The notes under the pieces: generated by a model
Seen by the model: only the letters and a program-made list of their open reading frames with translations
What the model was told of the DNA's origin: nothing
The model's database searches: none
Translations under genes and position numbers: made by a program
In this document: piece by piece, positions 3,252-37,209 of the stretch
Layout: each line of letters opens with the position of its first letter
Position numbering within the stretch: the stretch's first letter is position 1
Origin: Escherichia coli
Lineage (GTDB): Bacteria > Pseudomonadota > Gammaproteobacteria > Enterobacterales > Enterobacteriaceae
Direction: 5' to 3' (one strand)
Length of the DNA: 64,000 nt
Assembly: GCF_003018255.1 (NCBI RefSeq)
Contig: NZ_CP027440.1

Positions 3252-4604
3252 GTGTTTATTGGTTTTGATTACGGTACAGCAAACTGTTCAGTGGCGGTCA
3301 TGCGCGACGGTAAGCCGCAATTACTGAAAATGGAAAACGACAGCACGCTGCTGCCTTCAATGCTTTGCGCGCCAACGCGTGAAGCGGTAAGCGAATGGCT
3401 GTACCGCCATCATGATGTTCCGGCAGACGACGATGAAACGCAGGCGCTGTTGCGTCGGGCGATTCGTTATAACCGCGAAGAAGATATCGATGTTACGGCG
3501 AAAAGCGTGCAGTTCGGTCTTTCCTCACTGGCACAGTACATTGATGATCCAGAAGAGGTGTGGTTTGTGAAATCACCAAAATCATTCCTCGGTGCCAGCG
3601 GCTTAAAACCGCAGCAGGTAGCGCTGTTTGAGGATCTGGTCTGCGCAATGATGTTGCACATTCGCCAGCAGGCGCAGGCGCAGCTGCCGGAGGCAATTAC
3701 TCAGGCGGTGATTGGTCGCCCGATCAACTTCCAGGGGCTGGGCGGCGATGAAGCAAACGCCCAGGCGCAAGGGATTCTGGAACGCGCGGCGAAGCGTGCC
3801 GGGTTTAAGGATGTGGTATTCCAGTACGAGCCGGTCGCGGCTGGGCTGGATTACGAAGCCACCTTGCAGGAAGAAAAACGGGTGCTGGTGGTGGATATCG
3901 GCGGTGGTACGACTGACTGTTCATTGCTGCTGATGGGGCCGCAGTGGCGTTCGCGTCTCGATCGTGAAGCCAGCCTGCTGGGTCACAGTGGTTGCCGTAT
4001 TGGCGGTAACGATCTGGATATCGCACTGGCGTTTAAAAACCTGATGCCGTTACTGGGCATGGGTGGCGAAACCGAAAAAGGCATCGCCCTGCCGATTCTG
4101 CCGTGGTGGAATGCGGTTGCCATCAACGACGTTCCTGCGCAAAGTGATTTCTACAGTAGTGCCAACGGTCGTCTGCTTAACGACCTGGTACGCGATGCCC
4201 GCGAACCGGAAAAAGTGGCCCTGTTACAGAAAGTCTGGCGTCAGCGTTTAAGCTATCGCCTGGTACGTAGCGCAGAAGAGAGCAAAATTGCGCTTTCAAG
4301 CGTAGCGGAAACCCGCGCCTCACTGCCGTTTATCAGCGATGAACTGGCTACGCTGATTAGCCAGCAAGGGCTGGAAAGCGCCCTCAGCCAGCCACTGGCG
4401 CGGATTCTGGAACAGGTGCAACTGGCGCTGGATAACGCCCAGGAAAAACCGGATGTTATCTATCTGACCGGCGGTAGCGCCCGTTCACCGCTGATTAAAA
4501 AAGCGCTGACAGAACAGTTGCCGGGCATTCCGATTGCAGGTGGCGATGACTTTGGCTCCGTCACCGCCGGGCTGGCACGCTGGGCGGAAGTGGTGTTTCG
4601 TTAA
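3252..4604 (+). CDS. yegD: Hsp70/actin-fold ATPase YegD
   Basis: ORF 3189..4604; likely GTG start at 3252 giving 450 aa (VFIGFDYGTANCSVAV...), DnaK-like N-terminal phosphate loop. Confidence 0.8.
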   Translation: MFIGFDYGTANCSVAVMRDGKPQLLKMENDSTLLPSMLCAPTREAVSEWLYRHHDVPADDDETQALLRRAIRYNREEDIDVTAKSVQFGLSSLAQYIDDPEEVWFVKSPKSFLGASGLKPQQVALFEDLVCAMMLHIRQQAQAQLPEAITQAVIGRPINFQGLGGDEANAQAQGILERAAKRAGFKDVVFQYEPVAAGLDYEATLQEEKRVLVVDIGGGTTDCSLLLMGPQWRSRLDREASLLGHSGCRIGGNDLDIALAFKNLMPLLGMGGETEKGIALPILPWWNAVAINDVPAQSDFYSSANGRLLNDLVRDAREPEKVALLQKVWRQRLSYRLVRSAEESKIALSSVAETRASLPFISDELATLISQQGLESALSQPLARILEQVQLALDNAQEKPDVIYLTGGSARSPLIKKALTEQLPGIPIAGGDDFGSVTAGLARWAEVVFR

Positions 4605-4616
4605 TTGAAAACTGGC

Positions 4617-6566
4617 TCAGCAACGGCTTAAATCAGCCTGCGCCTGAGCCAGTTTTTCTGCCGCCTGACGTAGCGGTTCCATCAACGGCATGGTCCGTGC
4701 TGGAGCATGAAGGCGGAATCGCTGCAACTCTGTCGCACCGACATTCAGCGCCGATTCCAGCCGATGTCGTTTGGCGGCCATTTTTGCCATTACCGCTTGT
4801 CTGTCTGCAGGCGTTACCGCTTCGTTCGGCCTGAACACAAAACGGCGTTCACAGCTCGCTTTCCAGTCGATAACCGCCTGGGTCAGATGATCACCAAAAC
4901 CTTTCACTTGCTTAACGCTCCGTCGGGTAACATCCGCTGCTGTTTCAATACCAAAGGACCGTAACGCCGCTTTACGCGCAGGGCCAACGCCGGGAATAGA
5001 GGCAACATCAATAAAAAATCCCTCCAGAAACTTCTGCTTCTGCCGTTCCCTTGCGGTGTCCTGAAGTGCTGCCAGATCGCGCTTTTCTTCTTCCGGTAAC
5101 CCAAGAATTTCGTCCTTCATTTTTTCGAGCATCGTCCGTTTGGCGATAAAACCTTCCAGCCCGCCCAACTGCTGGATCTGGCTGACTAAATGGTCATAGT
5201 CCATTTTCGCGCGATTAAACGCCTCACGGCGTTGCTGGATTTCTGCTTTGTACGCTTTGCTTGTCAGGCTGCCAATAATCCAGATAGCCGCCAGCACAGG
5301 AACCAAAATAATATAACGTGGTTCTGTCTGAAGGCCGCAAAGCAGCAGCGATAACGCTGACAGTGCGATCTCAATCAGAATGATGTATTCACGCCTTAAC
5401 AGGCCTAAAGGAAGCGGCCTGCCAGTCGGTTGGAAATGATCGGGTAATGGTAATTGCAATGCTGGCGGTGCTACTGACGCCATCACCATCGCCCAGACTT
5501 TCGCCAGCACAAAATCACCGCTGGTGGTAATGACCTCTTCGCCGAGATCAATAAAATAGATAACGCCTTGATTATCCAGAGCACACCACGGGCAGTCAGC
5601 CAAATGACCGGGATAAACATGCATTGCCGAAACGGTACATTTCTTTAACTGTTGGCGTAGTAAATCAAGTGCCGCTACCCACGCTTTTGCCGTCGGACGC
5701 CCGGTTGCCACGCCACTTTCCGTGAATGCCTGCTGAAACATGGCTTCAACATCGCCCGGTAACATCGACAGCGGAATAGATCGTGGCGGCGGTTTTAAAC
5801 CACGTCGCTGATTATCTGACGCGTAGGCATAACGGAAATGGGCAATATCCGTCTCCAGTGCATTACCCGCATCAGAGACAAGCGGTACACCGGAATAAGG
5901 ATGCCGCCCACCAAACAAGACGTGAAAAATCAGCAACGCAAGGCCAAAATTATCGTGATTCGCGGTGCGTTCAAAGCCGACAAATGATGGCAAGGTTTGT
6001 TGCTCTGGCGGCGTAAAATGCGACACGCCGACTTCGCATAAATGCAGCGTGCCATTGGCGTTAATCTGAAAGGAGTCGCTATCAATCAACACCACTTTGC
6101 TGTCGCGACCTACCATAAAGCTGTTCTGGTTTACGTCACCCACGACGTGCCCGTGCTCGTGAATCGTAGCAAAAGATGAAGCAATATTGCGCGCAACATA
6201 GAGTAGAAAATCCCACGCACAATGAGGGTAACGTTGACGACGATGTGCCGGGCTATAGATCATATGAATCGGTTCTTTACCAGAAACTTTTGGCATCATA
6301 AAACCGATTACTTTTCCGCCTCGTCCACCGTGAAGCGTTGCCTGCGGCCAGGCGACATAATTCAACAACTGCGCGTCAGCTGTCGCAGCCATAAAGGCAA
6401 GTTTGTCCTGTTTTAAGGCGGGTGGCGGCGTGTGATAAATCTTGGCGACGCTATCGACAAACTCCTCGATATCATAAACCGCGCCTTCACCGCCTTTGCC
6501 CAGTTCACAGCCTGGCGTAACGCACTCACCAGTAGCAGTATATAAAGTGGGTTTCATGGTAACCAC
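4617..6566 (-). CDS. yegI: Ser/Thr protein kinase-like membrane protein YegI
   Basis: 649 aa ORF; N-terminal kinase-like domain, central hydrophobic segments, C-terminal helix-hairpin-helix-like region; start overlaps stop of upstream yegK. Confidence 0.8.
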   Translation of the reverse strand: MVTMKPTLYTATGECVTPGCELGKGGEGAVYDIEEFVDSVAKIYHTPPPALKQDKLAFMAATADAQLLNYVAWPQATLHGGRGGKVIGFMMPKVSGKEPIHMIYSPAHRRQRYPHCAWDFLLYVARNIASSFATIHEHGHVVGDVNQNSFMVGRDSKVVLIDSDSFQINANGTLHLCEVGVSHFTPPEQQTLPSFVGFERTANHDNFGLALLIFHVLFGGRHPYSGVPLVSDAGNALETDIAHFRYAYASDNQRRGLKPPPRSIPLSMLPGDVEAMFQQAFTESGVATGRPTAKAWVAALDLLRQQLKKCTVSAMHVYPGHLADCPWCALDNQGVIYFIDLGEEVITTSGDFVLAKVWAMVMASVAPPALQLPLPDHFQPTGRPLPLGLLRREYIILIEIALSALSLLLCGLQTEPRYIILVPVLAAIWIIGSLTSKAYKAEIQQRREAFNRAKMDYDHLVSQIQQLGGLEGFIAKRTMLEKMKDEILGLPEEEKRDLAALQDTARERQKQKFLEGFFIDVASIPGVGPARKAALRSFGIETAADVTRRSVKQVKGFGDHLTQAVIDWKASCERRFVFRPNEAVTPADRQAVMAKMAAKRHRLESALNVGATELQRFRLHAPARTMPLMEPLRQAAEKLAQAQADLSRC

Positions 6567-7315
6567 AGCGCCAGTGCCAACGTTTTATCATCATCGGTAC
6601 GCTCGTTTACCGCCGGGCCGGACAAAAACTGCTTTAACAATTCAGGTAATAAATCGAGTTGTTCCTGCGTTGCTGACGCCAGCCCATTGAAAAACGGGGT
6701 AAAGAAAGGCACATGCGGAGAATTATCCAGCATATTTAACGCCAGCCGCTGGATACCATCCGTAAATGCTGCAACTTTGTGCGCACGCTCAGTGCTGGTG
6801 AAAGTTTCCAGTCTGGAAACGGCATCTTCATCGGTAATGAAGTGCGTCATATTGGTATATTCACCCACCATCGGCGTGAGCGGCAGTTGCAAACCGTGCC
6901 CCAAATCTACCACCACGCCGCCATCGCCAATCTGCATAATCAAGGTGCCATTAGCTGATGAAATCAATCCCAAAAACGTGCAGGCAAAATCGCGAACCGC
7001 TAATTCTTTGGCTTCCGCCTCGGCAAAAAGTCGCTGACGAATGGTCAGCACAATGTCCGTTGCGAGAACATCATTAAGCCCCAATTCCCCGCCCTGCACT
7101 TTTTGCGACATATAAGCCATCGCTTCATTGACGGCGAGCATCGCACCTTCGCCTCCCTGCGAGGCGCTACCTGCGCCATCAGCGACAAATACCGACAATA
7201 ATGGCTGCTGGTCATTTAACCAGGCAACCTGCATCTGGCAGGCATCCTGGCAAGGCAAGTCCGCGCTGATGTGCGACGTTCCAACGGTTGATGCATAGAC
7301 CAGACGCCAGCTCAC
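6554..7315 (-). CDS. yegK: PP2C-family Ser/Thr protein phosphatase YegK (PphC)
   Basis: 253 aa ORF with PP2C-like metal-binding motifs (VADGAGS, FTDGI); overlaps yegL stop by 4 nt. Confidence 0.75.
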
Positions 7316-7971
7316 ACTGACGTCCAGCCTTTTGGCGCTTCCAGCACAACTTCCGTTCCCGGCGTGGAGCGGGAAACCGAACGCAGCGAACTGGATAACC
7401 AGCTAAATAGTTCGCGGAATTGTAATCCTTGAAGAGGCAAAGGCTGACGAACGCTGATTTGGGCCAGCGTCTTCATATCCGCCCCCTGAACACCGATGGA
7501 AAAGAAGGCAAACTTCTTATCTTCTTCCCCCTGAAACACCTTGTTGGCAGCAGCCTGCCACTCATCGGTTGGTGCGCCATCGGTAATCAGGAAAATCCAC
7601 GGACGATAATAGGAAATACCATTGGCGCGATACTCACGTTTGCGCTCCTCAACCATATCCAGGGCTTTGGTAATGGCGGCCCCCATTGGTGTATCGCCCT
7701 GGGCAAACAGGATGGGCGGGAAAAAATTAGCGGCGCTGGTAAATGGTTGTTCCACATGCACCGGGCCGAACGTCACAATGCCGAGTTCCACTCTTTTTAA
7801 GGCCAGCGGATCGGCAAGCAGCTCATCGCGAAAGGTAACCAATCCGGCGTTAAGTTCATTAATAGGTCTACCGTTCATAGAACCAGAAACATCCAACAGC
7901 AAAATGCAGGGGCAACGTGGTTCCGGGTTACTGGCAAAATCGCTGGTGGCAAACGTGATTTGTTCGCTCAT
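7312..7971 (-). CDS. yegL: von Willebrand factor A domain protein YegL
   Basis: 219 aa ORF with MIDAS motif DVSGSM and downstream TDG. Confidence 0.8.
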
Positions 7972-8152
7972 AAGAAATCCTTTCTTAGAGAATTATTGAG
8001 GCCCGGTATCATACCGACTGCAACAATGAAATAAGAGCAAACGAAGAAACTTTCAGAATTAGGCCCGGCGGCGCAGAAAATTTTGCTATTCGCCTCGCAA
8101 GAACGGAGAGCCGTCGATTGACACTAAGGGCGGAGTGACATAATTTCAGGAG

Positions 8153-8300
8153 TGAGGGTTAGGGAGAGGTTTCCCCCTCCCCCTGGTGTTCTTAGTAAGC
8201 CTGGAAGCTAATCACTAAGAGTATCACCAGTATGATGACGTGCTTCATCATAACCCTTTCCTTATTAAAAGCCCTCTTCTCCGGGAGAGGGTTTCCCGTT
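8153..8300 (+). ncRNA. sibA: Sib antisense RNA antitoxin, copy 1 (boundaries approximate)
   Basis: Plus-strand -35 ttgaca 8118-8123, 17 bp spacer, -10 taattt 8141-8146; transcript fully covers ibs ORF; hairpin plus T tract near 8268-8303. Confidence 0.55.
8192..8251 (-). CDS. ibsA: Ibs type I toxin, 19 aa hydrophobic peptide (MMKHVIILVILLVISFQAY)
   Basis: Reverse complement of 8192..8251 reads ATGATGAAGCACGTCATCATACTGGTGATACTCTTAGTGATTAGCTTCCAGGCTTACTAA; SD-like ggaaaggg upstream. Confidence 0.8.
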   Translation of the reverse strand: MMKHVIILVILLVISFQAY

Positions 8301-8487
8301 TCAGCGTCCCGCTGAAATCGTCGGCTTACCTCCTTTCGCCCTGAATGCAGTCTATCGCTAACGCGTGAACAAAATAGTTTCCTCTGTGATTATTGCGTAA
8401 CGACTCGCAAAGAATATTTGCTGGCAGGATCGCAGACTACAAAGCCTGCGGATTGACAATCTTATCGTGAAGGCATAATTTCAGGAG

Positions 8488-8630
8488 TGAGGGTAGAGCG
8501 GGGTTTCCCCCGCCCTGGTAGTCTTAGTAAGCTGGCCAGCTAATAACTAAGAGCACCACGATGATGAGTAGCTTCATCATGACCCTTTCCTTATTTAAGG
8601 CCCCTTCCTCGGGAGGGGCTTTCCCGTTTC
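8488..8630 (+). ncRNA. sibB: Sib antisense RNA antitoxin, copy 2 (approximate)
   Basis: ttgaca 8453-8458, 17 bp spacer, taattt 8476-8481; hairpin ggccccttcctcgggaggggct followed by ttcccgtttc. Confidence 0.55.
8524..8580 (-). CDS. ibsB: Ibs type I toxin, 18 aa (MMKLLIIVVLLVISWPAY)
   Basis: Reverse complement of 8524..8580 gives ATGATGAAGCTACTCATCATCGTGGTGCTCTTAGTTATTAGCTGGCCAGCTTACTAA. Confidence 0.8.
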   Translation of the reverse strand: MMKLLIIVVLLVISWPAY

Positions 8631-8815
8631 AGCGTCCCGCTGAAATCGGCGGCCTACCTCCTTTCGCCATGCAAGCAGTCTATCGCTAACTTGCAGATAA
8701 AATAGTTTCACATGTGATTATTGCGTAACGTCTCGCAAAGAATATTTGCTGGCAGGATCGCAGACTACAAAGCCTGCGGATTGACAATCTAATTGTGAAG
8801 GCATACTTTCAGGAG

Positions 8816-8957
8816 TGAGGGTAGAGCGGGGTTTCCCCCGCCCTGGTAGTCTTAGTAAGCCGGGAAGCTTATGACTAAGAGCACCACGATGATGATCCAC
8901 TTCATCATGACCCTTTCCTTATTTAAGGCCCCTTCCTCGGGAGGGGCTTTCCCGTTT
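8816..8957 (+). ncRNA. Sib-family antisense RNA, copy 3 (approximate)
   Basis: ttgaca 8781-8786, 17 bp spacer, -10-like tacttt 8804-8809; terminator hairpin ending near 8957. Confidence 0.5.
8852..8908 (-). CDS. Ibs-family type I toxin, 18 aa (MMKWIIIVVLLVISFPAY)
   Basis: Reverse complement of 8852..8908 gives ATGATGAAGTGGATCATCATCGTGGTGCTCTTAGTCATAAGCTTCCCGGCTTACTAA. Confidence 0.75.
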   Translation of the reverse strand: MMKWIIIVVLLVISFPAY

Positions 8958-9143
8958 CAGCGTCCCGCTGAAATCATCGGCTTACCTCCTTTCGCCCTGA
9001 ATGCAGTCTATCGCTGACTTGCGGATAAAATAGTTTCACATGTGATTATTGCGTGACGTCTCGCAAAGAATATTTGCTGGCAGGATCGCAGACTGCAAAG
9101 CCTGCGGATTGACAATCGGACCGTGAAGGCATACTTTCAGGAG

Positions 9144-9287
9144 TGAGGGTAGAGCGGGGTTTCCCCCGCCCTGGTAGTCTTAGTAAGCTGGGTAGCTAAC
9201 GACTAAGAGCACCACGATGATGAGTATCTTCATCATGACCCTTTCCTTATTTAAGGCCCCTTCCTCGGGAGGGGCTTGCCCGTTTCA
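9144..9287 (+). ncRNA. Sib-family antisense RNA, copy 4 (approximate)
   Basis: ttgaca 9109-9114, 17 bp spacer, tacttt 9132-9137; terminator hairpin ending near 9286. Confidence 0.5.
9180..9236 (-). CDS. Ibs-family type I toxin, 18 aa (MMKILIIVVLLVVSYPAY)
   Basis: Reverse complement of 9180..9236 gives ATGATGAAGATACTCATCATCGTGGTGCTCTTAGTCGTTAGCTACCCAGCTTACTAA. Confidence 0.75.
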   Translation of the reverse strand: MMKILIIVVLLVVSYPAY

Positions 9288-16962: not shown

Positions 16963-18378
16963 ATGACAGATCTTCCCGACAGCACCCGCTGGCAATTGTG
17001 GATTGTGGCTTTCGGCTTCTTTATGCAGTCGCTGGACACCACCATCGTTAACACCGCGCTTCCCTCAATGGCGCAAAGCCTCGGGGAAAGTCCGTTGCAT
17101 ATGCACATGGTCATTGTCTCTTATGTACTGACCGTGGCGGTGATGCTGCCCGCCAGCGGCTGGCTGGCGGACAAAGTCGGCGTGCGCAATATTTTCTTTA
17201 CCGCCATCGTGCTGTTTACTCTCGGTTCACTGTTTTGCGCGCTTTCCGGCACGCTGAACGAACTGTTGCTGGCACGCGCGTTACAGGGCGTTGGCGGCGC
17301 GATGATGGTGCCGGTCGGCAGGTTGACGGTGATGAAAATCGTACCGCGCGAGCAATATATGGCGGCGATGACCTTTGTCACGCTGCCCGGTCAGATCGGG
17401 CCGCTGCTTGGCCCGGCGCTCGGCGGTCTGCTGGTGGAGTACGCATCGTGGCACTGGATCTTTTTGATCAACATTCCGGTGGGGATTATTGGCGCGATCA
17501 CCACACTGATGTTAATGCCGAACTACACCATGCAGACGCGGCGCTTTGATCTCTCCGGCTTTTTATTGCTGGCGGTTGGCATGGCGGTATTAACCCTGGC
17601 GCTGGACGGCAGTAAAGGTACAGGTTTATCGCCGCTGGCGATTGCTGGCCTGGTCGCAGTTGGCGTGGTGGCACTGGTGCTTTATCTGCTGCACGCCAGA
17701 AATAACAACTGCGCCCTGTTCAGTCTGAAACTGTTCCGTACTCGTACCTTTTCGCTGGGTCTGGCGGGGAGTTTTGCCGGACGTATCGGTAGCGGCATGT
17801 TGCCCTTTATGACGCCGGTTTTCCTACAAATTGGCCTTGGCTTCTCACCGTTTCATGCCGGACTGATGATGATCCCGATGGTGCTCGGCAGCATGGGGAT
17901 GAAGCGAATTGTGGTACAGGTAGTGAATCGCTTTGGTTATCGTCGGGTACTGGTGGCGACCACGCTGGGTCTGTCGCTGGTCACCCTGTTGTTTATGACT
18001 ACTGCTCTGCTGGGCTGGTACTACGTTTTGCCGTTCGTCCTGTTTTTACAAGGGATGGTCAACTCGACCCGTTTCTCCTCCATGAACACCCTGACGCTGA
18101 AAGATCTCCCGGACAATCTGGCGAGCAGCGGCAACAGTCTGCTGTCGATGATTATGCAATTGTCGATGAGTATCGGCGTCACTATCGCCGGGCTGTTGCT
18201 GGGACTTTTTGGTTCACAGCATGTCAGCATCGACAGCGGCACCACACAAACCGTCTTTATGTACACCTGGCTTAGCATGGCGTTGATCATCGCCCTTCCG
18301 GTGTTTGTCTTTGCCAGAGTGCCGAGCGATACGCATCAAAATGTAGCTATTTCACGGCGAAAAAGGAGCGCGCAATGA
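16963..18378 (+). CDS. mdtD: MFS transporter MdtD
   Basis: 471 aa ORF with about 14 hydrophobic segments; starts immediately after mdtC stop. Confidence 0.85.
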
Positions 18379-19778
18379 AGTTCTGGCGACCCGGTATTAC
18401 CGGCAAACTGTTTCTGGCGATTTTCGCCACCTGCATTGTCTTGCTGATCAGTATGCACTGGGCGGTGCGTATCAGTTTTGAGCGTGGCTTTATCGATTAC
18501 ATCAAGCATGGTAATGAACAACGGCTGCAAATGCTCGGCGATGCGCTTGGTGAGCAGTACGCCCAGCACGGGAACTGGCGCTTCCTGCGTAATAACGATC
18601 GCTTTGTATTTCAGATCCTACGTTCACTGGAGCATGATAACAACGAAGATAAGCCCGGCCCCGGTATGCCACCACACGGCTGGCGCACGCAATTTTGGGT
18701 GGTTGATCAAAATAATAAAGTGCTGGTTGGCCCGCGAGCACCGGTTCCACCCGACGGCACACGGCGGCCCATTATGGTCAATGGTGCGGAAGTTGGCGCG
18801 GTGATCGCCTCCCCTGTTGAACGACTGACCCGTAATACTGATATCAATTTTGACAGACAACAGCGGCAAACCAGTTGGCTGATTGTGGCTTTATCTACCT
18901 TATTAGCGGCGCTGGCGACATTCCCACTGGCGCGCGGTTTGCTGGCTCCGGTAAAACGACTGGTGGATGGCACGCACAAACTGGCAGCGGGTGATTTCAC
19001 TACTCGCGTAGCCCCCACCAGCGAAGATGAGTTGGGCAGACTGGCAGAGGATTTCAATCAACTCGCCAGCACACTGGAGAAAAACCAGCAGATGCGCCGC
19101 GATTTTATGGCCGATATTTCTCATGAACTGCGCACGCCTTTAGCAGTACTGCGCGGCGAACTGGAAGCCATTCAGGATGGTGTGCGTAAATTCACGCCGG
19201 AGACGCTGGCTTCTTTACAGGCGGAGGTCGGTACACTGACCAAACTGGTTGACGATCTTCATCAGTTGTCGATGTCTGATGAAGGCGCTCTCGCCTATCA
19301 AAAAGCACCGGTAGATTTGATCCCACTGCTGGAAGTGGCGGGCGGCGCATTTCGCGAACGATTTGCCAGCCGTGGCCTGAAACTGCAATTTTCCCTGCCA
19401 GACAGTATTACCGTATTTGGCGATCGCGATCGTTTAATGCAGTTGTTCAATAACTTACTGGAAAACAGCCTGCGCTACACTGACAGCGGCGGCAGCCTGA
19501 AAATCTCTGCCGAGCAGCACGACAAAACGGTGCGCCTGACCTTTGCCGACAGCGCGCCGGGCGTCAGTGACGATCAGCTACAAAAATTGTTTGAACGTTT
19601 TTATCGCACCGAAGGTTCCCGCAACCGTGCCAGCGGCGGTTCCGGGCTGGGACTCGCGATTTGCCTGAACATTGTTGAAGCACATAATGGCCGCATTATT
19701 GCTGCCCATTCGCCTTTTGGCGGGGTAAGCATTACAGTAGAGTTACCGCTGGAACGGGATTTACAGAGAGAAGTATGA
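18375..19778 (+). CDS. baeS: Envelope-stress sensor histidine kinase BaeS
   Basis: 467 aa; HAMP region, H-box ([17 protein letters not shown]), GxGLGL ATP lid; start overlaps mdtD stop. Confidence 0.9.
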
Positions 19779-20497
19779 CCGAGTTACCAATCGACGAAAA
19801 CACACCGCGTATTTTGATCGTGGAAGATGAACCGAAGCTGGGACAGTTGCTCATTGATTATCTGCGTGCCGCGAGCTATGCGCCGACGCTTATCAGCCAC
19901 GGCGATCAGGTACTGCCGTATGTGCGCCAGACACCACCGGATCTGATCCTGTTGGATCTGATGCTCCCTGGCACCGATGGCCTGACGCTGTGCCGGGAAA
20001 TTCGTCGTTTTTCTGACATTCCGATCGTGATGGTGACGGCAAAAATCGAAGAGATCGACCGCCTGCTGGGGCTGGAGATTGGCGCCGATGACTACATCTG
20101 CAAGCCGTACAGCCCACGGGAAGTGGTAGCGCGTGTCAAAACCATTTTGCGCCGTTGTAAACCGCAACGCGAACTTCAGCAACAGGATGCCGAAAGCCCG
20201 TTGATGATCGACGAAGGTCGTTTTCAGGCTTCATGGCGCGGTAAAATGCTTGACCTGACGCCTGCGGAATTTCGTCTGCTGAAAACGCTCTCTCATGAAC
20301 CAGGAAAAGTGTTCTCCCGCGAGCAATTGCTCAATCATCTTTATGACGACTACCGCGTAGTAACCGACCGCACCATCGATAGCCACATTAAAAACCTGCG
20401 CCGCAAGCTGGAATCTCTCGACGCCGAACAGTCATTTATCCGTGCCGTTTACGGTGTCGGTTACCGCTGGGAAGCCGACGCCTGCCGCATCGTTTAG
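19775..20497 (+). CDS. baeR: OmpR-family response regulator BaeR
   Basis: 240 aa; receiver domain (ILIVEDEP...[14 protein letters not shown]) plus winged-helix C-terminus; overlaps baeS stop. Confidence 0.9.
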
Positions 20498-20687
20498 TTT
20501 TAGCGACATGACTTTGTTAGCCGGAGATGGCGTTCAGATCAGATCCGGCAACATTATCCCACGTATGGTCAGCAAACTGACATTATCTCTCCGCCCTGGC
20601 AGGCACCAGAAAATCGCTCATACTTTAATCGGTAAACAGCACCTTTAGATGCTGTTTTCGATACGCAATTTCAATCAAGGAGTCATT

Positions 20688-21020
20688 ATGGCTGGTTGGT
20701 TTGAACTCAGTAAGAGCAGTGATAATCAATTCCGGTTTGTGCTAAAAGCGGGCAATGGTGAGACTATCCTCACCAGCGAGCTGTATACCTCAAAAGCCTC
20801 TGCGGAAAAGGGCATCGCGTCGGTGCGTAGCAACAGCCCGCAAGAAGAACGCTATGAGAAAAAAACGGCAAGCAATGGCAAATTCTATTTCAATCTGAAA
20901 GCCGCCAATCATCAAATTATCGGCTCCAGCCAGATGTATGCCACCGCGCAATCTCGTGAAACCGGAATTGCCTCCGTTAAAGCAAATGGCACAAGCCAGA
21001 CGGTGAAAGACAATACGTAA
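20688..21020 (+). CDS. yegP: Small protein YegP (tandem DUF1508-like repeats)
   Basis: ORF 20649..21020; start placed at ATG 20688 after aaggag RBS (MAGWFELSKSSDNQFRFVLKAG..., 110 aa). Confidence 0.8.
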   Translation: MAGWFELSKSSDNQFRFVLKAGNGETILTSELYTSKASAEKGIASVRSNSPQEERYEKKTASNGKFYFNLKAANHQIIGSSQMYATAQSRETGIASVKANGTSQTVKDNT

Positions 21021-21167
21021 TTACGATGCCGGGCGCGTGTTGTTGGCGTCCGGCGCTTTACCAGCTCCCCCCTACAGCGCTACAATGCCCGCCCTTAAAG
21101 TGGGGGCACTCCCCTGGCCGCTTCATCAGGTGAAGCGGATCTGACCTGTCATCAGAACGAGAGAATT

Positions 21168-22529
21168 ATGTTTAAACCGGAACTCCTTTCCCCGGCGGGA
21201 ACGCTGAAAAATATGCGTTACGCTTTCGCTTATGGCGCAGATGCTGTTTATGCGGGCCAGCCGCGTTACTCCCTGCGTGTGCGCAACAACGAATTCAACC
21301 ACGAAAATCTTCAGCTCGGCATCAATGAAGCCCACGCGCTGGGGAAAAAGTTTTATGTCGTGGTCAACATTGCACCGCACAACGCCAAGCTGAAAACCTT
21401 TATCCGTGACCTGAAACCGGTGGTGGAAATGGGGCCGGATGCGCTAATAATGTCCGATCCAGGGCTGATTATGCTGGTGCGTGAGCACTTCCCTGAAATG
21501 CCGATCCATCTCTCGGTACAGGCTAACGCCGTGAACTGGGCGACGGTGAAATTCTGGCAGCAAATGGGACTGACCCGCGTGATCCTCTCTCGCGAGCTGT
21601 CGCTGGAAGAGATTGAAGAGATCCGCAATCAGGTGCCAGATATGGAGGTAGAGATCTTCGTTCACGGCGCGCTGTGCATGGCCTACTCTGGTCGCTGCCT
21701 GCTCTCTGGCTACATCAACAAGCGCGATCCGAATCAGGGCACCTGCACTAACGCCTGCCGCTGGGAGTACAACGTCCAGGAAGGCAAAGAAGATGACGTT
21801 GGCAACATCGTACACAAGTACGAGCCAATTCCGGTGCAAAATGTTGAGCCGACGCTGGGTATCGGCGCACCAACTGACAAAGTGTTTATGATCGAAGAAG
21901 CCCAGCGTCCGGGCGAGTATATGACCGCGTTTGAAGATGAGCACGGCACTTACATCATGAACTCGAAAGATCTGCGCGCCATCGCCCATGTAGAACGCCT
22001 GACCAAAATGGGCGTGCATTCGCTGAAAATCGAAGGTCGTACCAAATCTTTCTACTATTGCGCACGCACCGCGCAGGTTTACCGTAAAGCTATCGATGAC
22101 GCCGCTGCGGGAAAACCATTCGATACCAGCCTGCTGGAAACTCTGGAAGGTCTGGCGCATCGTGGCTATACCGAAGGTTTCCTGCGTCGTCATACTCACG
22201 ACGATTATCAGAACTACGAATACGGTTATTCAGTTTCTGACCGCCAGCAGTTTGTTGGTGAGTTTACCGGTGAGCGCAAGGGCGACCTCGCGGCGGTAGC
22301 GGTGAAAAATAAATTCTCCGTTGGCGACAGTCTTGAGCTGATGACGCCGCAAGGGAACATTAACTTTACCCTTGAGCATATGGAAAACGCCAAAGGTGAA
22401 GCTATGCCGGTCGCACCAGGCGATGGTTATACTGTGTGGATCCCGGTGCCGCAGGATCTTGAGCTAAATTACGCGCTGCTGATGCGTAATTTCTCCGGGG
22501 AAACCACGCGTAACCCCCACGGTAAGTGA
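21168..22529 (+). CDS. yegQ: U32-family peptidase-like protein YegQ
   Basis: 453 aa ORF recognised as YegQ. Confidence 0.8.
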   Translation: MFKPELLSPAGTLKNMRYAFAYGADAVYAGQPRYSLRVRNNEFNHENLQLGINEAHALGKKFYVVVNIAPHNAKLKTFIRDLKPVVEMGPDALIMSDPGLIMLVREHFPEMPIHLSVQANAVNWATVKFWQQMGLTRVILSRELSLEEIEEIRNQVPDMEVEIFVHGALCMAYSGRCLLSGYINKRDPNQGTCTNACRWEYNVQEGKEDDVGNIVHKYEPIPVQNVEPTLGIGAPTDKVFMIEEAQRPGEYMTAFEDEHGTYIMNSKDLRAIAHVERLTKMGVHSLKIEGRTKSFYYCARTAQVYRKAIDDAAAGKPFDTSLLETLEGLAHRGYTEGFLRRHTHDDYQNYEYGYSVSDRQQFVGEFTGERKGDLAAVAVKNKFSVGDSLELMTPQGNINFTLEHMENAKGEAMPVAPGDGYTVWIPVPQDLELNYALLMRNFSGETTRNPHGK

Positions 22530-22613
22530 TTAATTTCGATTATTTTTCCCGGATGGAAAATTCTTAGAAACCGATCACATACAGCTGCATTTATTAAGGT
22601 TATCATCCGTTTC

Positions 22614-22700
22614 GCTGAAAAACATAACCCATAAAATGCTAGCTGTACCAGGAACCACCTCCTTAGCCTGTGTAATCTCCCTTACACGGGCTTATTTTTT
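22614..22700 (+). ncRNA. cyaR: CyaR (RyeE) Hfq-dependent small RNA
   Basis: Sequence gctgaaaaacataacccataaaatgctagctgtaccaggaaccacctccttagcctgtgtaatctcccttacacgggcttatttttt matches CyaR as recalled, including terminator hairpin and U tract. Confidence 0.85.
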
Positions 22701-22870
22701 ATACATAAACCATAGAGACGGATTGATCCCAGGTCACCGTCTTCCATTGACCACATCGATAGAATCTCCCTTCATAGCACGATGCCTTTCACGTAACGGC
22801 ATCGTGCTCGCACAGGTTCCGGCTAAGCACAACCAGAACGCGGATGTTTGACGCTTACCAAAAAATATTC

Positions 22871-23188
22871 TCACTCTCCACATTTGAATGTCAGACGAGC
22901 GACGCCATGTAATCCTGCACCTTCTGTCTTCAGGTCAACTATCTGCATTTTTTTGCCCTGAGTAACACAGAAATGAACTGCATCATTTTTTACTATATTT
23001 TCTGCACCAGATATTCTACCCCTGGCTAAAGAAGCTTCGGCTTCGGTGTAGTATTGGTTATCGAGTTTACGCTGAATATTACTTTTATATGCAAGACCAA
23101 ATTTACCGATACTTGTCTCATCATTATGTACAGCACACCCAGACATAAGAAAAACACTAATTAATGATATAGCAGCTATCTTTTTCAT
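22871..23188 (-). CDS. yegR: Lipoprotein-like small protein YegR
   Basis: ORF 22871..23248; start placed at ATG giving 105 aa (MKKIAAISLISVFLMSGCAV..., lipobox-like LMSGC). Confidence 0.7.
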   Translation of the reverse strand: MKKIAAISLISVFLMSGCAVHNDETSIGKFGLAYKSNIQRKLDNQYYTEAEASLARGRISGAENIVKNDAVHFCVTQGKKMQIVDLKTEGAGLHGVARLTFKCGE

Positions 23189-23602
23189 CTCACCTTCCCC
23201 CATTAAATACCAACGACACGCTCTGGTGTTTAAATATAATAATGGCATGATTATTATAATTGAATAGGATTATAATAAATGTTCTGTACAACATTTCCTA
23301 CATAAGTAGGAATTACATACACGGATGCCCTTCCAGGTAACCCCATGGGGGGGTTAATATATTTTTAATAGTATATTGAAGATGCCACTGTTTAGTTGAA
23401 TATTAGGTATATGTTCTTTTTTGAAATTTACCGGTGGCTACCGTTAATATTCGCTGTTCCCATTGCAAGCTCCTGGTGGTAACCACTGAATCCTCCATAC
23501 TTGAACTGACTTTTTATCCTCCGACTTTCATCCTGTTCTGACTCCACCTTTTCTTTTCTGCTCTACACTATCTACAGTCCAATCATAAAGGCACATACGA
23601 TC

Positions 23603-24502
23603 ATGGCAGAATTTCCCGCCAGCTTACTGATTCTTAATGGCAAAAGTACTGACAATCTACCCTTGCGCGAAGCAATTATGCTGTTGCGTGAGGAAGGAAT
23701 GACGATCCATGTGCGGGTCACCTGGGAGAAAGGCGATGCCGCACGATATGTAGAGGAGGCACGGAAGTTGGGCGTCGCAACGGTGATTGCCGGTGGTGGC
23801 GATGGCACCATTAATGAAGTTTCTACGGCGTTGATTCAGTGTGAGGGGGATGACATACCCGCGCTGGGAATTTTACCATTAGGAACCGCCAATGATTTTG
23901 CCACCAGTGTAGGGATTCCTGAGGCACTGGATAAGGCGCTGAAACTGGCAATTGCCGGTAACGCCATTGCGATAGATATGGCGCAGGTCAATAAACAAAC
24001 CTGTTTTATTAATATGGCGACAGGCGGATTTGGGACGCGTATTACCACAGAAACGCCGGAAAAATTAAAAGCCGCGCTGGGTGGCGTCTCTTACATCATT
24101 CATGGCTTAATGCGCATGGATACTCTGCAACCGGACCGTTGTGAGATCCGCGGTGAAAACTTTCACTGGCAAGGTGACGCCCTGGTCATTGGTATTGGTA
24201 ACGGGCGTCAGGCCGGTGGCGGTCAGCAATTGTGCCCGAACGCGTTAATTAACGATGGCTTGCTGCAACTGCGCATTTTTACCGGCGATGAAATTCTTCC
24301 AGCTCTCGTATCAACCTTAAAATCTGACGAAGATAACCCGAATATTATCGAAGGCGCTTCGTCGTGGTTTGATATACAAGCCCCACACGAAATCACTTTT
24401 AATCTTGATGGCGAACCGTTGAGCGGACAAAACTTTCATATTGAAATACTTCCGGCGGCGTTGCGTTGTCGATTACCACCAGATTGTCCATTGTTGCGTT
24501 AA
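23603..24502 (+). CDS. yegS: Lipid kinase YegS (DAGK-catalytic-domain family)
   Basis: 299 aa; diacylglycerol-kinase-like GGDGT motif. Confidence 0.85.
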
Positions 24503-24540
24503 TCAAACTATTCTCTCTTGAACCAGGGAGAATCCGTAAT

Positions 24541-24574
24541 GCCGGATGCGGTGTAAACACCTTATCCGGCATAC
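24541..24574. repeat. REP element
   Basis: gccggatgcggtgtaaacaccttatccggcatac palindromic unit between convergent yegS and gatR. Confidence 0.6.
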
Positions 24575-24583
24575 AGAACAATA

Positions 24584-25363
24584 CTACACCGTAATTAATT
24601 TCACCCGTGTCTTCTGCAATGCCAGTTTATCCACCTCTGACACAGCATCGTCGGTAATAATAATGTCGATTTTTTCGATTGGCAGTACCTGATTAAAACC
24701 GCGACGATTAAATTTCGATGAATCGAGAACGGCAATCACTTTATTTGCGGCGGTGACCATCGCCCCGCTAATCGAATAACCTTCATTAAAGGTCGTAATA
24801 CCATTAACCGCATCAATACCATCAGCACCGACAAACATTAAATCGGCATTAATATCCTGCAATGAACGCTCGGCAATGGAACCATGCATCGAGCGTGTTT
24901 TATGGCGGACGGTCCCACCACAGACGACCAGAGTAATGTCTTTATTTTCGGAAAGGGCAAACGCCGCCGGGAGACTGTTGGTAATCACCGTGATATTTTT
25001 GGCGGTCATTAAACCTTCGGCGATAAGCATTGTGGTACTTCCGCTGTCGAGAATAACGGTCATCCCTTCGTGGATCATTTTGACTGCCGCCTGCGCTATT
25101 CTGTTTTTTGGCGCACTGGCGAGCTGAAATCGCTCTTTAAACCCAACTTCCTGGGTCTCGGTTTCGCTATTACCGGACATTATTTTCGCCGCACCGCCAT
25201 GAAAGCGCGTAACCACGCCTTTTTGTTCGAGAAAGCGCAAATCGGCACGGATTGTCGCTTCCGAGGCAGCAAATACTCCCGCCAGATCCTGAACAAGCAC
25301 GGTTCCCTGTTCATTCACTAATTGGATGATCTTATTCCTTCGCTCGAATGAATTCATCGTCAT
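24584..25363 (-). CDS. gatR: DeoR-family galactitol operon repressor GatR, uninterrupted
   Basis: 259 aa continuous ORF; N-terminal HTH (ERRNKIIQLVNEQGTVLVQDLAGVF) and DeoR sugar-binding C-terminus. Confidence 0.8.
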   Translation of the reverse strand: MTMNSFERRNKIIQLVNEQGTVLVQDLAGVFAASEATIRADLRFLEQKGVVTRFHGGAAKIMSGNSETETQEVGFKERFQLASAPKNRIAQAAVKMIHEGMTVILDSGSTTMLIAEGLMTAKNITVITNSLPAAFALSENKDITLVVCGGTVRHKTRSMHGSIAERSLQDINADLMFVGADGIDAVNGITTFNEGYSISGAMVTAANKVIAVLDSSKFNRRGFNQVLPIEKIDIIITDDAVSEVDKLALQKTRVKLITV

Positions 25364-25462
25364 TTACCCATATTCAATTGTGGCTAGTGTAAACGAAGGG
25401 GGACCATTGGTGAATGATCTGTTTTGCACAATACCGGGCCAGCATCACGCTGGCCCGCGGTT

Positions 25463-26503
25463 TCAGGGAATGAGCAACACTTTGCCCGGCATAGCATTAC
25501 GAGCGATGTCACGCACCGCCTGGGCGAAGCTTTCAAAGCTTCCACGGTGAACGATTAATGGCTCCAGGCTTAACTTACGTTCTGTCAGCAACCGACTCGC
25601 CGTTTCCCACTCCTGCCCCGGCCAAGGGCTGGAGTAGTTCATCCAGCTGCCGATCACCGTCAGCTCTTTACGTAATATTTTGCCAAACGTTGTCGATGTT
25701 AAATGCAGATCCTGATGCAACGTGCCCACCAGCGCCAGCTGGGCATGAGGCCCGGCAATCTCTACCGCCAGTTCGACAGTTTGCGGGACGCCAGCCGTCT
25801 CGAGGATAAGCTGATTAAAGCGCAGCTCGCGTAAAACGCCCTGCATTTGCGGCGCGCTCATTTCAAGGCTGTTAAATGTTTGCATCGCACCGAAAGATTT
25901 TGCCAGTGCCAGTTTTTCTGAGCTAATGTCGATAGCCGTCACACTCTTTGCTCCCAGCGCGACAGCGCACTGAATAGCCAGCAGGCCAATGGTTCCGGCA
26001 CCAATAATAATAACGTTTTTATTCTCACAACCTTGCGCTAAATGAAAAGCATGCAGGCCAACGGTAATCGGCTCAATAAAAGCCCCATCCTCAATAGGCA
26101 TATCCGTGGGTAGAGCAAAGACATTTTTTCGCTTAACGACAATATATTCAGCAAGTCCACCATCACGCCGCGAGCCAATAAAATCATATTTTGCGCACTG
26201 GGAATAAAACCCTTTCAAACACTCTGGACAAGTAAAACAGGGTAATAACGGCACACAGGCAACCACATCGCCAGGGTGTAAATCATCAACACCGGATCCC
26301 ACCGCATCAATATAGCCGCTAAATTCATGACCTAACGTTATTGGATAATAATGTGCACCATTTTTAAATATCCTGGGTAAATCGGAACCACATAAGCCCG
26401 AGCTGGCAATTTTTACCCGCACCTCATCCTGATGTTTAATTTCAGGAATGACGCTTTCTGCTACGCGCACGATACCATCAGTATCATTCACCACTGATTT
26501 CAT
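25463..26503 (-). CDS. gatD: Galactitol-1-phosphate 5-dehydrogenase
   Basis: 346 aa Zn-dependent MDR-family dehydrogenase with Rossmann GAGTIG motif. Confidence 0.9.
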   Translation of the reverse strand: MKSVVNDTDGIVRVAESVIPEIKHQDEVRVKIASSGLCGSDLPRIFKNGAHYYPITLGHEFSGYIDAVGSGVDDLHPGDVVACVPLLPCFTCPECLKGFYSQCAKYDFIGSRRDGGLAEYIVVKRKNVFALPTDMPIEDGAFIEPITVGLHAFHLAQGCENKNVIIIGAGTIGLLAIQCAVALGAKSVTAIDISSEKLALAKSFGAMQTFNSLEMSAPQMQGVLRELRFNQLILETAGVPQTVELAVEIAGPHAQLALVGTLHQDLHLTSTTFGKILRKELTVIGSWMNYSSPWPGQEWETASRLLTERKLSLEPLIVHRGSFESFAQAVRDIARNAMPGKVLLIP

Positions 26504-26550
26504 AAAAACTCCTGATTGTTAAGGGGGATAACATCCCCCTCAGGTAAAAA

Positions 26551-27906
26551 TTATTCTGCGAGAACGGCTTTCTCTTGTTTAATAAAACCACGCGCTCTAC
26601 GCCAGGTCATGAAAATACCGGTAAGATAAATTGTGCCGATAATAATGAAGCCGGGAATATTTTGCGGGGAGAAAACCTGAATCAGTAACCAGGTAATGGG
26701 AGAACCGCCCTGATCCATTGAAGCCACCATACCCCCGGCTTTTAACGCCCCAGCATTAGCCGCCAGTTGGGTGTGCAAACCAATAGTTTGCGTCGCGATC
26801 CACAGGGTGATGCTCATAATGATGACACCCGAGATTAAGGTGCGGAACAGATTTCCACGATGCACCGCGACCGCCATCGCTACAAAGAAACCGATGGTGG
26901 CAAGGTCGCCAAACGGCAGTACCTGATTACCCGGAACACAAACAGCAATTAAAATGGTGAGCGGGATAAAAATCAGGCTTGCCGATACCACCGCCGTATG
27001 CCCCAGCAGCAACGCCGGATCAAGGCCAATCAGGAACTCCTGACCGCCGAACTTCGCCTGTAAACGACTACGGGCCTGCTTAGCGATGGGCGTTAAACCA
27101 TCCATGATGGGTTTAATCACCCGTGGCATCAGCAGCATAACTGCCGCCGTTTTTACCGCCAGCTGCAATACACCTTTGACATCGTAACCCGCGAGGATGC
27201 CGATAATCAGCCCCATCACAAAGCCCACGGTGACAGGTTCGCCAAATGGGCCAAATTTGCGCTGAATATCGTCGGCGCTAAATTTAATACGGTTAACGCC
27301 TGGGATTTTCTCGATGATAGCATCCACCAGCACCGCAATTGGCCCCAGATACGCCGACGTACCGTGCGGAATAGCAATGCCTTCCAGCTCAAAGAAATTT
27401 CGGGTATCGCGGGCAAACCAGTCGCCGAGCTTATAAACAAACGCCGCGTGAATTACCACACCCGCCATCCCTATCATCCATGAACCGGTTGCCAGATGCA
27501 GCAATGCGCCGGTGAAGGTCATATGCCAGATATTCCAGATATCAACATTTACCACCCGCGTCATACGGGTCAGTAGCATCGCCACGTTAACCAGAATCGC
27601 AATCGGAATCGCCACCAGCGCAATTTGCGACGCCCAGGTCATTGGTGAAGAGCCCGGCCAACCGACATCGACCACATGCAGATTCAGGTCAAAATTTTCC
27701 GCCATCGCTTTCGCCGCCGGGCCAATGGAATCCAGCATTAAGCCAATCACAAGGCCAATACCAACAAAGCCAATCCCGATATGCAGACCTGCTTTAAAGC
27801 AATCGCCTGCCTTCATGCCTAATATTTTAGAAAAAATAATGATGACAATCGGCAGCATCACCGTAGGGCCGAGGTCGAGAATATAACGCATGACTTCTGA
27901 AAACAT
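26551..27906 (-). CDS. gatC: PTS galactitol-specific EIIC component
   Basis: 451 aa polytopic membrane protein in gat operon context. Confidence 0.9.
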   Translation of the reverse strand: MFSEVMRYILDLGPTVMLPIVIIIFSKILGMKAGDCFKAGLHIGIGFVGIGLVIGLMLDSIGPAAKAMAENFDLNLHVVDVGWPGSSPMTWASQIALVAIPIAILVNVAMLLTRMTRVVNVDIWNIWHMTFTGALLHLATGSWMIGMAGVVIHAAFVYKLGDWFARDTRNFFELEGIAIPHGTSAYLGPIAVLVDAIIEKIPGVNRIKFSADDIQRKFGPFGEPVTVGFVMGLIIGILAGYDVKGVLQLAVKTAAVMLLMPRVIKPIMDGLTPIAKQARSRLQAKFGGQEFLIGLDPALLLGHTAVVSASLIFIPLTILIAVCVPGNQVLPFGDLATIGFFVAMAVAVHRGNLFRTLISGVIIMSITLWIATQTIGLHTQLAANAGALKAGGMVASMDQGGSPITWLLIQVFSPQNIPGFIIIGTIYLTGIFMTWRRARGFIKQEKAVLAE

Positions 27907-27909
27907 AGG

Positions 27910-28194
27910 TCACCCCTGTAAGATAGTCAGAATTTTATTTTGTAATGCTTCGATACCGACACCAGAAACAAAAGGCATGCCGTGAACTAACGGAATATCG
28001 CCAAAACTTCGATCCACCCTGGCAGTGGTGCATATCAAATGCACGCCATCCATATAGGTTTCTATTTCATTAACCCGACACTGGATTAATTCAACAGGAA
28101 TATTATGACTCTGACACAACTCTTTAATTTCTTCCGCCGCCATCGTAGAGGTCGCAACCGCGCCTCCGCAAGCGACAATAATCTTGCGTTTCAT
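27910..28194 (-). CDS. gatB: PTS galactitol-specific EIIB component
   Basis: 94 aa with N-terminal active Cys ([12 protein letters not shown]). Confidence 0.9.
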
Positions 28195-28224
28195 AAATAG
28201 TCCTTTTTATTGTTACAGAGGGAT

Positions 28225-28677
28225 TTATTCGTCTGAATCTAAAACATACTTTGTGAAGTATTCCTTTAACTGGGTTTCAGGAAGAGTGATTAGTGTCTCG
28301 ACGATCTCGGGCTGTTGTAACTTGCCAAATAAACAGCGTAAAAGTTTCAATTGCTGCTGCGGATTTTCCACAATTAACGCAATAACCAACGATACCGCCA
28401 CGTCGTTATCATCATCCGCTTGCTGAAAATGAACTTTATTTGTTGGCCTTAACAGATAAATGGCTGACGACTTAGCATGAATCGCCTCACAATGCGGTAT
28501 TGCAATGGCGTGCTGCTCAAGCATTATCCCGGTAGGGAATTCTGCTTCTCTGGCAATTAATGCCTGTGGCCAGGTATCATGAACCACACCTTTCGCGAGC
28601 ATCTCATTACCGATATGGGTTAAAACTTCGCTACGATCGACAAAAGAAATTCCGCTACGAACAAACAGGTTAGTCAT
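28225..28677 (-). CDS. gatA: PTS galactitol-specific EIIA component
   Basis: 150 aa EIIA-like ORF in gat operon context. Confidence 0.9.
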   Translation of the reverse strand: MTNLFVRSGISFVDRSEVLTHIGNEMLAKGVVHDTWPQALIAREAEFPTGIMLEQHAIAIPHCEAIHAKSSAIYLLRPTNKVHFQQADDDNDVAVSLVIALIVENPQQQLKLLRCLFGKLQQPEIVETLITLPETQLKEYFTKYVLDSDE

Positions 28678-28686
28678 ATACCGTCC

Positions 28687-30886
<2,200 letters not shown>

Positions 30887-36381: not shown

Positions 36382-37209
36382 TTAAGGCGTTTCTTTAATC
36401 CCATCAACGAATGCCTGCAACTCCTCCACCGTGCCATTAAACACATTAAAATCCACCGGACCATTAATGCCATCGACCTGTCCACGGTCGGAATGCTGCC
36501 AGAAGCGCCAGGCCATGCCGTCATTGTCCGGGCGACGTTGATAATAGTGAGCCACCCACCACGGATATTCATTGAAATAGCCCGCCAGATTGGTGTGATA
36601 AAAAACGGCTCCTGAGTAAATAATTGGCTTTTTACCCGTACGTTTTTCGACCATTTTTAGCCACTGACTTACCCGCTTGCGTAATTCTTTTGCCGATAAT
36701 TTTCCCCGTTCTTCTACGTCCAGCACGGCAGGGAAATCGCCTTGTGAGAAATCCACCGTTTGCAGAAATAATCTCGCCTGAACTGAAGCAGATACCGACG
36801 GGGAAAAATAATGATACGCCCCGCGCAGCAGGCCATTTTCGCGGCTTAGTTGCCAGTTACGCGAAAAATAGGGGTCCACCAGCTTTTCGCCTTCCGTCGC
36901 CTTAATAAAAGCAAACTGTAAGCGGATACCGTTGTCGCGCATTTTTGCCACACGCTGCCAGTCGATCCGCTCCTGCCAGCGTGAAACATCTATTCCGTGA
37001 ATGGTGTAACTGGCAGGAATGCGAATAGCGAAAGATTTAACCGGGCGATAACCGTAGAAGTGGATGTAGTCTTTAATCTGAATTGCTGTCGAATAGAAAA
37101 AATTCACCGTCTGACGCGGATAAATTGCAACGATGGAAATTAGCCCAAGAGCGCATAATAAAACGGTGAATTTTTTTCGACTGGTGATTCTCAACTGCAT
37201 TGGTTTCAT
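36382..37209 (-). CDS. yegX: Glycoside hydrolase family 25 (lysozyme-like) protein YegX
   Basis: 275 aa; N-terminal signal/anchor (FTVLLCALGLISIVAIY) followed by GH25-like domain (GIDVSRWQERIDW...). Confidence 0.7.
   Translation of the reverse strand: MKPMQLRITSRKKFTVLLCALGLISIVAIYPRQTVNFFYSTAIQIKDYIHFYGYRPVKSFAIRIPASYTIHGIDVSRWQERIDWQRVAKMRDNGIRLQFAFIKATEGEKLVDPYFSRNWQLSRENGLLRGAYHYFSPSVSASVQARLFLQTVDFSQGDFPAVLDVEERGKLSAKELRKRVSQWLKMVEKRTGKKPIIYSGAVFYHTNLAGYFNEYPWWVAHYYQRRPDNDGMAWRFWQHSDRGQVDGINGPVDFNVFNGTVEELQAFVDGIKETP

Follow-up and report, generated by a model that had tools for sequence, protein, structure and literature searches.

The window analysed here, a 64-kb stretch of Escherichia coli DNA, carries the sRNA gene cyaR (ryeE) directly 3' of yegQ/trhP, followed by yegR on the opposite strand and then by yegS and gatR (Table 1). 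The same order of yegQ and cyaR recurs in almost every one of the 120 Enterobacterales loci listed. The cmscan search matched CyaR/RyeE (RF00112) to positions 22612-22697 on the + strand with 100.7 bits, the gathering score being 47, and the match spanned model positions 1-85 of 85, the full length. The gene limits used here were set by collinearity with the K-12 gene. According to the terminator scan, cyaR ends in a stem-loop at 22665-22692 and a T-run at 22693-22700, and the MFE fold contains both CyaR hairpins, namely the terminator and the hairpin with the anti-Shine-Dalgarno-like CCUCC loop. From the sequence we also read a CRP-like site, TTAGAAACCGATCACA, at 22564-22579, centred ~42 bp upstream of the cyaR +1, and a -10 hexamer, TATCAT, at 22601-22606. 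CyaR transcription is CRP-dependent (PMC3333887).

The stop codon of yegR occupies 22871-22873, leaving 170 bp between the cyaR T-run and yegR. This spacer holds a hairpin with an 11-bp stem (AGCACGATGCC...GGCATCGTGCT), located 3' of yegR and at the position that the ogr terminator takes in P2-like phages; it has no T-run. Roughly one in six of the sampled E. coli genomes bear an AT-rich insertion of 169 bp just 3' of the yegR stop, as in E. coli DE17 (locus positions 1956-2124), at a point equivalent to ~22866 of the window, which itself has no such insertion. By sequence reading, the 169 bp hold a 41-aa ORF on the yegR strand. Further downstream, gatR is unbroken in the window, whereas the K-12 gatR is split by IS3E.

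Table 1. Features of the window, with the evidence on which each was placed
Feature	Position	Strand	Basis
Sib RNA genes (four)	8118-8266, 8453-8595, 8781-8923, 9109-9251	+	RF00113
yegQ/trhP, upstream of cyaR	21168-22529	+	453-aa ORF; annotation taken from matching E. coli genomes
Predicted cyaR promoter	22564-22606	+	Read from the sequence
cyaR (ryeE) sRNA gene including intrinsic terminator	22614-22700	+	Rfam RF00112, terminator scan, MFE fold, collinearity with K-12
P2-type att core (putative attB), one copy	22674-22700	+	27/27 identity to the annotated P2 attP core
Putative degenerate P2 P-arm copy (IHF and Int arm-type sites)	22701-22765	+	Alignment to the P2 attP and PR-X arm
Hairpin with 11-bp stem	22776-22808	unassigned	Sequence and fold of the - strand
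yegR	22871-23188	-	105-aa ORF and annotation in E. coli records
Orphan terminator-like hairpin	23338-23356	+	Terminator scan; no + strand gene upstream
Putative degenerate P2-type P'-arm copy	23394-23488	+	Alignment to the P' arm at the RM9245 attR
Putative vestigial second att core	23489-23515	+	18/27 identical to the core
yegS promoter region and yegS (ancestral flank)	23523-23602 and 23603-24502	+	MAFFT alignment with seven other taxa resumes here
gatR	24584-25363	-	Intact 259-aa ORF
OrzO-P antitoxin RNAs (two)	58225-58298, 58833-58906	+	RF02083

An earlier note on this DNA had pointed to the short distance (~170 bp) between cyaR and the oppositely oriented yegR, and had placed a P2-like remnant with ogrK and yegZ between the two genes in K-12. 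Both statements were borne out. In the annotation of MG1655, cyaR (2167114-2167200) is followed by the 'cryptic prophage PR-X' (2167183-2167811) with ogrK and the yegZ pseudogene, and yegR follows at 2167989. The cyaR-yegR gap is thus 788 bp in K-12 versus 170 bp in the window, and an equally short K-12 gap, which would have refuted the note, is not seen. Alignment of the window with K-12 by BLAST and MAFFT showed that a block of ~615 bp comprising ogrK and yegZ is exactly what the window is without, and neither PR-X DNA nor the Ogr and YegZ peptides had a match anywhere in the 64 kb by blastn and tblastn. K-12 has kept the P arm intact, together with ogrK, part of gene D (yegZ) and 18 nt of a second core, and PR-X is in all likelihood the stump of a prophage once integrated at the cyaR core. 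In K-12, P2 is reportedly diverted to secondary sites by this remnant. PR-X occupies the same chromosomal site as the empty spacer of the window and shares its left junction, in which the cyaR core is followed by a P2 P arm, but the window passes from the core directly into an older and degenerate relic of a P arm.

The search for a P2-type att core at the 3' end of cyaR was successful. The window sequence at 22674-22700, AATCTCCCTTACACGGGCTTATTTTTT, is identical in 27 of 27 positions to the P2 attP core (AF063097, 24356-24382), and within the cyaR terminator it starts with the final two bases of the 5' stem and runs through the loop and the 3' stem to the end of the T-run. The exact 27-mer occurs once in the 64-kb window, where no copy is expected by chance. 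We call the site unoccupied because the window contains this single copy of the core. Moreover, the 64-kb window contains no ogr, gene D or PR-X DNA, and the only relics of att arms present in it are degenerate ones. These data argue strongly that the 27 bp constitute the attB of P2 and its close relatives, unoccupied in this strain.

In the annotated P2 attP, the IHF and Int P-arm sites lie on the ogr side of the core, and the Cox and Int P'-arm sites on the int side. As the attP holds the same 27 bp, Int-mediated integration would duplicate the core and restore an intact 3' end of cyaR, so that the sRNA gene would be rebuilt upon integration from the identical stretch carried by the phage. 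The integrated prophage would then lie between cyaR and yegR, with ogr adjoining cyaR and int adjoining yegR. In its identical 27-bp core and in its position between yegQ/cyaR and yegR, the site in the window is the same as the P2 attB at cyaR; we see no difference of substance, and the window provides an unoccupied example of it. We take the P2 site at the 3' end of cyaR to be locI of E. coli C, the preferred P2 site, an equation that reportedly goes back to work by Barreiro and Haggard-Ljungquist in 1992. We infer that this strain would accept P2 at 22674-22700.

Occupied examples of the same site are found in other E. coli genomes. Strain 98207 has two exact cores (locus positions 1056-1082 and 37143-37169) separated by 36,087 bp, and the complete gene set of a P2-like prophage of 36 kb lies between them, with ogrK adjoining cyaR and int adjoining yegR. 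The same arrangement is seen from one side in RM9245, where the int of the prophage adjoins yegR, and from the other in 30EVA2, where ogr and D adjoin cyaR. The match of 30EVA2 to the window stops at the end of the core; it was considered as a possible genome without the DNA around yegR, and was rejected as such when the site proved to be occupied. Where the interval is split in E. coli genomes, the breaks in the match fall at query positions 275 and 301, equivalent to 22674 and 22700 of the window and hence exactly to the two edges of the core. The proposal of the earlier note that the 3' end of cyaR is a phage integration hotspot, left vacant in this strain, is therefore upheld by the cores flanking P2-like prophages elsewhere and by the single core in a window devoid of PR-X and prophage genes.

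A vacant site is not a distinguishing mark of this strain. The locus is present in 5,423 of 5,426 complete E. coli genomes, and ~78% of those 5,423 are empty in the same way as the window; the empty site is thus the majority state and the norm in E. coli, and K-12 is the exception. The cyaR-yegR interval was contiguous in 4,565 complete genomes and interrupted by more than ~950 bp in ~858 (16%). All five interrupted cases that were sampled are consistent with site-specific occupation. The K-12-type junction, with yegZ and a partial core, was found in 356 of the 5,426 genomes (6.6%), including laboratory derivatives of K-12 such as ER1709. Among the 5,426 complete genomes, the best match to positions 17000-29000 of the window reached 99.1% over 12 kb, and the lineage of the window is accordingly without a very close complete relative in RefSeq.

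The present emptiness could also be secondary. The site may once have been occupied in this lineage and then emptied by precise excision mediated by Int and Cox. Site-specific excision restores attB exactly, so that an empty site keeps no record of a former prophage, and the occupation of ~16% of E. coli genomes at present implies frequent turnover. The sequence is silent on this point in either direction, and a past excision is compatible with our main explanation and would leave the identity of the site unchanged. We regard such an episode as possible but doubtful.

The empty site itself borders on what appears to be an older insertion. The 815 bp that follow the core (22701-23515) and carry yegR have a GC content of 39%, versus 51% for the window. 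A MAFFT alignment showed that this island is absent from 'E. coli E69', E. whittamii, Silvania, C. koseri, Enterobacter, Klebsiella and Atlantibacter, in all of which the promoter region of yegS, ...GACTTTCATCCTGTTCTGAC..., begins within ~10 nt of the cyaR T-run; the name 'E. coli E69' here is the label of a separate Escherichia lineage. Among the matches listed, the start of yegS lies no more than 320 nt from the start of the cyaR pattern in 68 of the 94 species in which it could be located. The spacer with yegR is fixed in E. coli, and it is absent from E. whittamii, E69, E. albertii and most Enterobacterales.

Both ends of the island resemble the arms of a P2 attachment site. On the cyaR side, the segment directly after the core aligned with the P arm of P2 and PR-X, with a Smith-Waterman score, calculated without the core, of 25 against 7.9 ± 1.3 for 2000 shuffles. 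One Int arm repeat, CATTGACCACATCGA, is exact in this relic, while the other repeat is lost and the IHF region is partly degenerate. Most E. coli genomes have suffered a further deletion of ~12 nt here, and the window keeps the fuller version. On the yegS side, the segment resembling a P' arm scored 15.5 against 8.2 ± 1.5, a value reached by 2 of 2000 shuffles. It runs into AATCCTCCATACTTGAACTGACTTTTT, an apparent vestige of a second core, identical to the intact core in 18 of 27 positions; an identity of at least 18/27 occurs at 3 of 127,948 positions of the window, one of which is the true core. When the P' arm and the core vestige were combined, the score rose to 23 against 8.8 ± 1.4, which none of 2000 shuffles reached. 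The vestige, identical in K-12, lies 7 nt before GACTTTCATCC, and in E69 and in the attR of E. albertii an intact core lies 8 nt before the same motif. Read from left to right, the window thus presents a core, a P arm, yegR, a P' arm and a core vestige, which is the layout of an integrated P2 prophage. The interior holds an orphan terminator-like hairpin, which could conceivably be the leftover of a lost gene. When the island was compared with a full P2-like prophage and with P2 by blastn and tblastx, nothing beyond the arms was matched and no remains of phage genes were found.

Because relics of the arms lie inside both ends, a core vestige lies at the yegS side and the insertion is absent from the outgroups, we consider it rather likely that 22701-23515 is the ghost of an earlier P2-like prophage. 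This is the sole part of our analysis that may be new; a literature search found no description of the yegR spacer as a prophage ghost, the older papers on P2 att sites lying outside its coverage.

A fresher parallel was found in E. albertii. In strain NBRC 107761, the interval between cyaR and yegS contains no yegR but an island of 3.4 kb (locus positions 4930-8330) with the cytolethal distending toxin genes cdtA, cdtB and cdtC (5932-8074). At its left end the island has the cyaR core and a P arm that is truncated; at its right end, a clear P' arm is joined by a core abutting the yegS promoter. Judged by these junctions, it is a decayed P2-like prophage. It shares with the island of the window the insertion point, the start in core and P arm and the end in P' arm and core. 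The two differ in size, content and preservation: 3.4 kb with toxin genes and a well-preserved attR in E. albertii versus 815 bp with yegR and an attR decayed to 18/27 in E. coli.

The use of cyaR as an integration site extends well beyond Escherichia. Species-representative genomes were scanned with a cyaR pattern, which yielded at least 120 loci; E. fergusonii, E. marmotae, E. ruysiae and clade I are not represented among those listed. Of the 120 loci listed, 13 have a P2-type P arm after a cyaR terminator that is the host's own; they belong to Escherichia, Citrobacter, Enterobacter and Buttiauxella. The typical P arm in these loci includes ...GAAATAAA(A/T)GGATTTATTTC...GTCCACACATTGACCACATCGA, an ogr-type terminator comes next in most of the 13, and the att core varies with the terminator stem of each host. 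The recurrence of P arms after cyaR in several genera suggests that the hotspot is old and widespread. An odd member of the scan was JAIJJM010000051.1, a contig of 9.7 kb labelled 'MAG: Collinsella sp.', in which a cyaR of the E. coli type is followed by a P arm matching that of P2 exactly and by an Ogr of 100% identity. Almost certainly, this is E. coli/P2 DNA that was binned by mistake with an actinobacterial MAG.

Prophages at cyaR also carry variable cargo between the P arm with its terminator and ogr, as observed in 30EVA2 and at three of the scanned loci. In 30EVA2 the cargo is a 98-aa TM2-domain protein encoded on the - strand (locus positions 4417-4713), the same strand as yegR. The cargo between P arm and ogr amounts to ~0.9 kb in C. 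youngae and ~2.3 kb in an Enterobacter locus, and further examples include a protein of 201 aa and a pair, of 306 and 230 aa, that look secreted. The attP-ogr slot is thus a place where P2-like phages carry cargo genes. It is not among the three moron regions given in PMC6823313.

The gene inside the island of the window encodes a predicted lipoprotein of 105 aa with the lipobox LMSGC, and its GC content is 38%. Precomputed domain annotation assigns homologues of YegR to the family PF27694; a Pfam scan of YegR itself gave no significant match. Hardly any members of the family occur outside E. coli and Shigella. Against PHROG, YegR matched phrog_21109 strongly (6e-72), but this match probably stems from prophage records with host flank among the seeds. 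The phage collection contained two records with yegR, and both include host flank: that of vB_EcoM-720R8 holds yegS and gatR beside yegR, and 'Phage TP' is a clone of a K-12-like junction. No phage-borne homologue of yegR was found in the phage collection apart from these records. Since living relatives carry cargo in the slot between attP and ogr, yegR may be cargo of the lost prophage, situated in the same slot. At least one strain can do without the gene, as E. coli FDAARGOS_1077 has lost most of it through an internal deletion of ~306 bp (equivalent to window 22833-23138). The 'direct' junction of cyaR and yegS in this strain was considered as a possible ancestral state and rejected, being the product of the ~306-bp deletion inside yegR.

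Alternatively, yegR and its AT-rich surroundings could have arrived by another route, such as an IS-mediated or illegitimate event, the arm-like ends being separate scars or partly due to chance. The distant homologues of YegR would fit such a history, as one lies in an IS/Tn3-rich Enterobacter island and the other at an unrelated chromosomal locus, a mug-proximal one on a metagenome contig, and neither setting is P2-like. The lack of any P2 gene remnant within the 815 bp and the modest signals of the P' arm and the core vestige point the same way. However, the start of the insertion coincides exactly with the 3' edge of the core, and it ends at a core-like 27-mer that stands in register with the ancestral flank (7 versus 8 nt before GACTTTCATCC). 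An integrated P2 prophage shows the same succession of core, P arm, P' arm and core, and P2-like prophages at this site do carry cargo between P arm and ogr, in 30EVA2 on the very strand of yegR. Taking both sides together, we consider an origin of this kind rather unlikely.

The likeness of 22701-22765 to the P arm could also be read in reverse, with an ancestral P2-like phage having captured host DNA by aberrant excision. Homology as such carries no direction, and aberrant excision is a known route by which phages gain flanking host DNA. However, the taxa without the yegR island are also without the sequence of 22701-22765 beside cyaR. The prophages of Citrobacter, Enterobacter and Buttiauxella all keep a well-conserved arm with annotated IHF and Int sites, whereas in E. 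coli the chromosomal copy has degenerated and continues to lose bases. Capture would, moreover, leave the relic of the P' arm and the vestige of the core at the far end unexplained, and we judge it improbable.

Least credible is the notion that the short spacing was left when a K-12-type ogrK-yegZ remnant was deleted, with K-12 ancestral and the window derived: deletions do happen here, the K-12 remnant being itself a deletion product and FDAARGOS_1077 having lost ~306 bp of yegR, but the junction in the window consists of the canonical core and the flank seen in ~78% of genomes and next to the attR of intact prophages, just 356 of 5,426 genomes have the K-12-type junction, and random deletion would not recreate exactly one core, so that this highly improbable reading is effectively refuted by the junction alignment and the junction counts.

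We therefore keep to an empty P2 site that adjoins the probable ghost of an older relative. The observation made in the earlier note is real and its interpretation right, but the hotspot as such has already been published. The 3' end of cyaR/ryeE is said to be discussed by De Lay and Gottesman in 2009 and by Wassarman in 2001. A search of the literature for cyaR as a phage P2 attachment site, or for locI and locH, returned nothing specific. For E. coli, PMC3603311 describes ryeE as 'previously known to be targeted by phages' and cites Wassarman 2001. More generally, phages and islands integrate at the 3' ends of tRNA, tmRNA and sRNA genes, examples being ryeB/sdsR in Salmonella and ssrA for Fels-2 and SopE-phi (PMC3603311, PMC3333887, PMC3448106). 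The cyaR site resembles these systems in that the core takes in the 3' portion of a structured RNA gene and the phage brings the replacement, by which the gene survives. In contrast to targets of the tRNA-like acceptor-arm type, the target in cyaR is the Rho-independent terminator of an Hfq-type sRNA.

Two further features of the window concern type I toxin-antitoxin systems. Upstream of the mdt operon, four Sib antitoxin RNA genes (RF00113, 137-150 bits each) stand in tandem on the + strand. K-12 presumably has two Sib genes, sibA and sibB, at this locus, so that the Ibs/Sib array would be expanded here. Elsewhere in the window, the two OrzO-P RNAs indicate a tandem locus of the zorO/zorP type, which we take to be absent from K-12.

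The main finding carries little weight on its own, as it concerns the classical P2 site at the cyaR terminator, which stands empty here as it commonly does. It does predict that P2-like phages would be taken up by this strain at 22674-22700, and it makes the cyaR-yegR interval a convenient PCR target for the presence of a prophage. The older insertion would have wider meaning. If 22701-23515 is indeed the ghost of a P2-like prophage, the P2 phages of today insert next to the remains of an older relative, and K-12 presents two stacked generations of remnants. Such a history would also trace yegR, which is fixed in E. coli but uncharacterised, to a phage. It would further mean that an att site can gather stacked prophage remnants while the sRNA gene that contains it stays intact.
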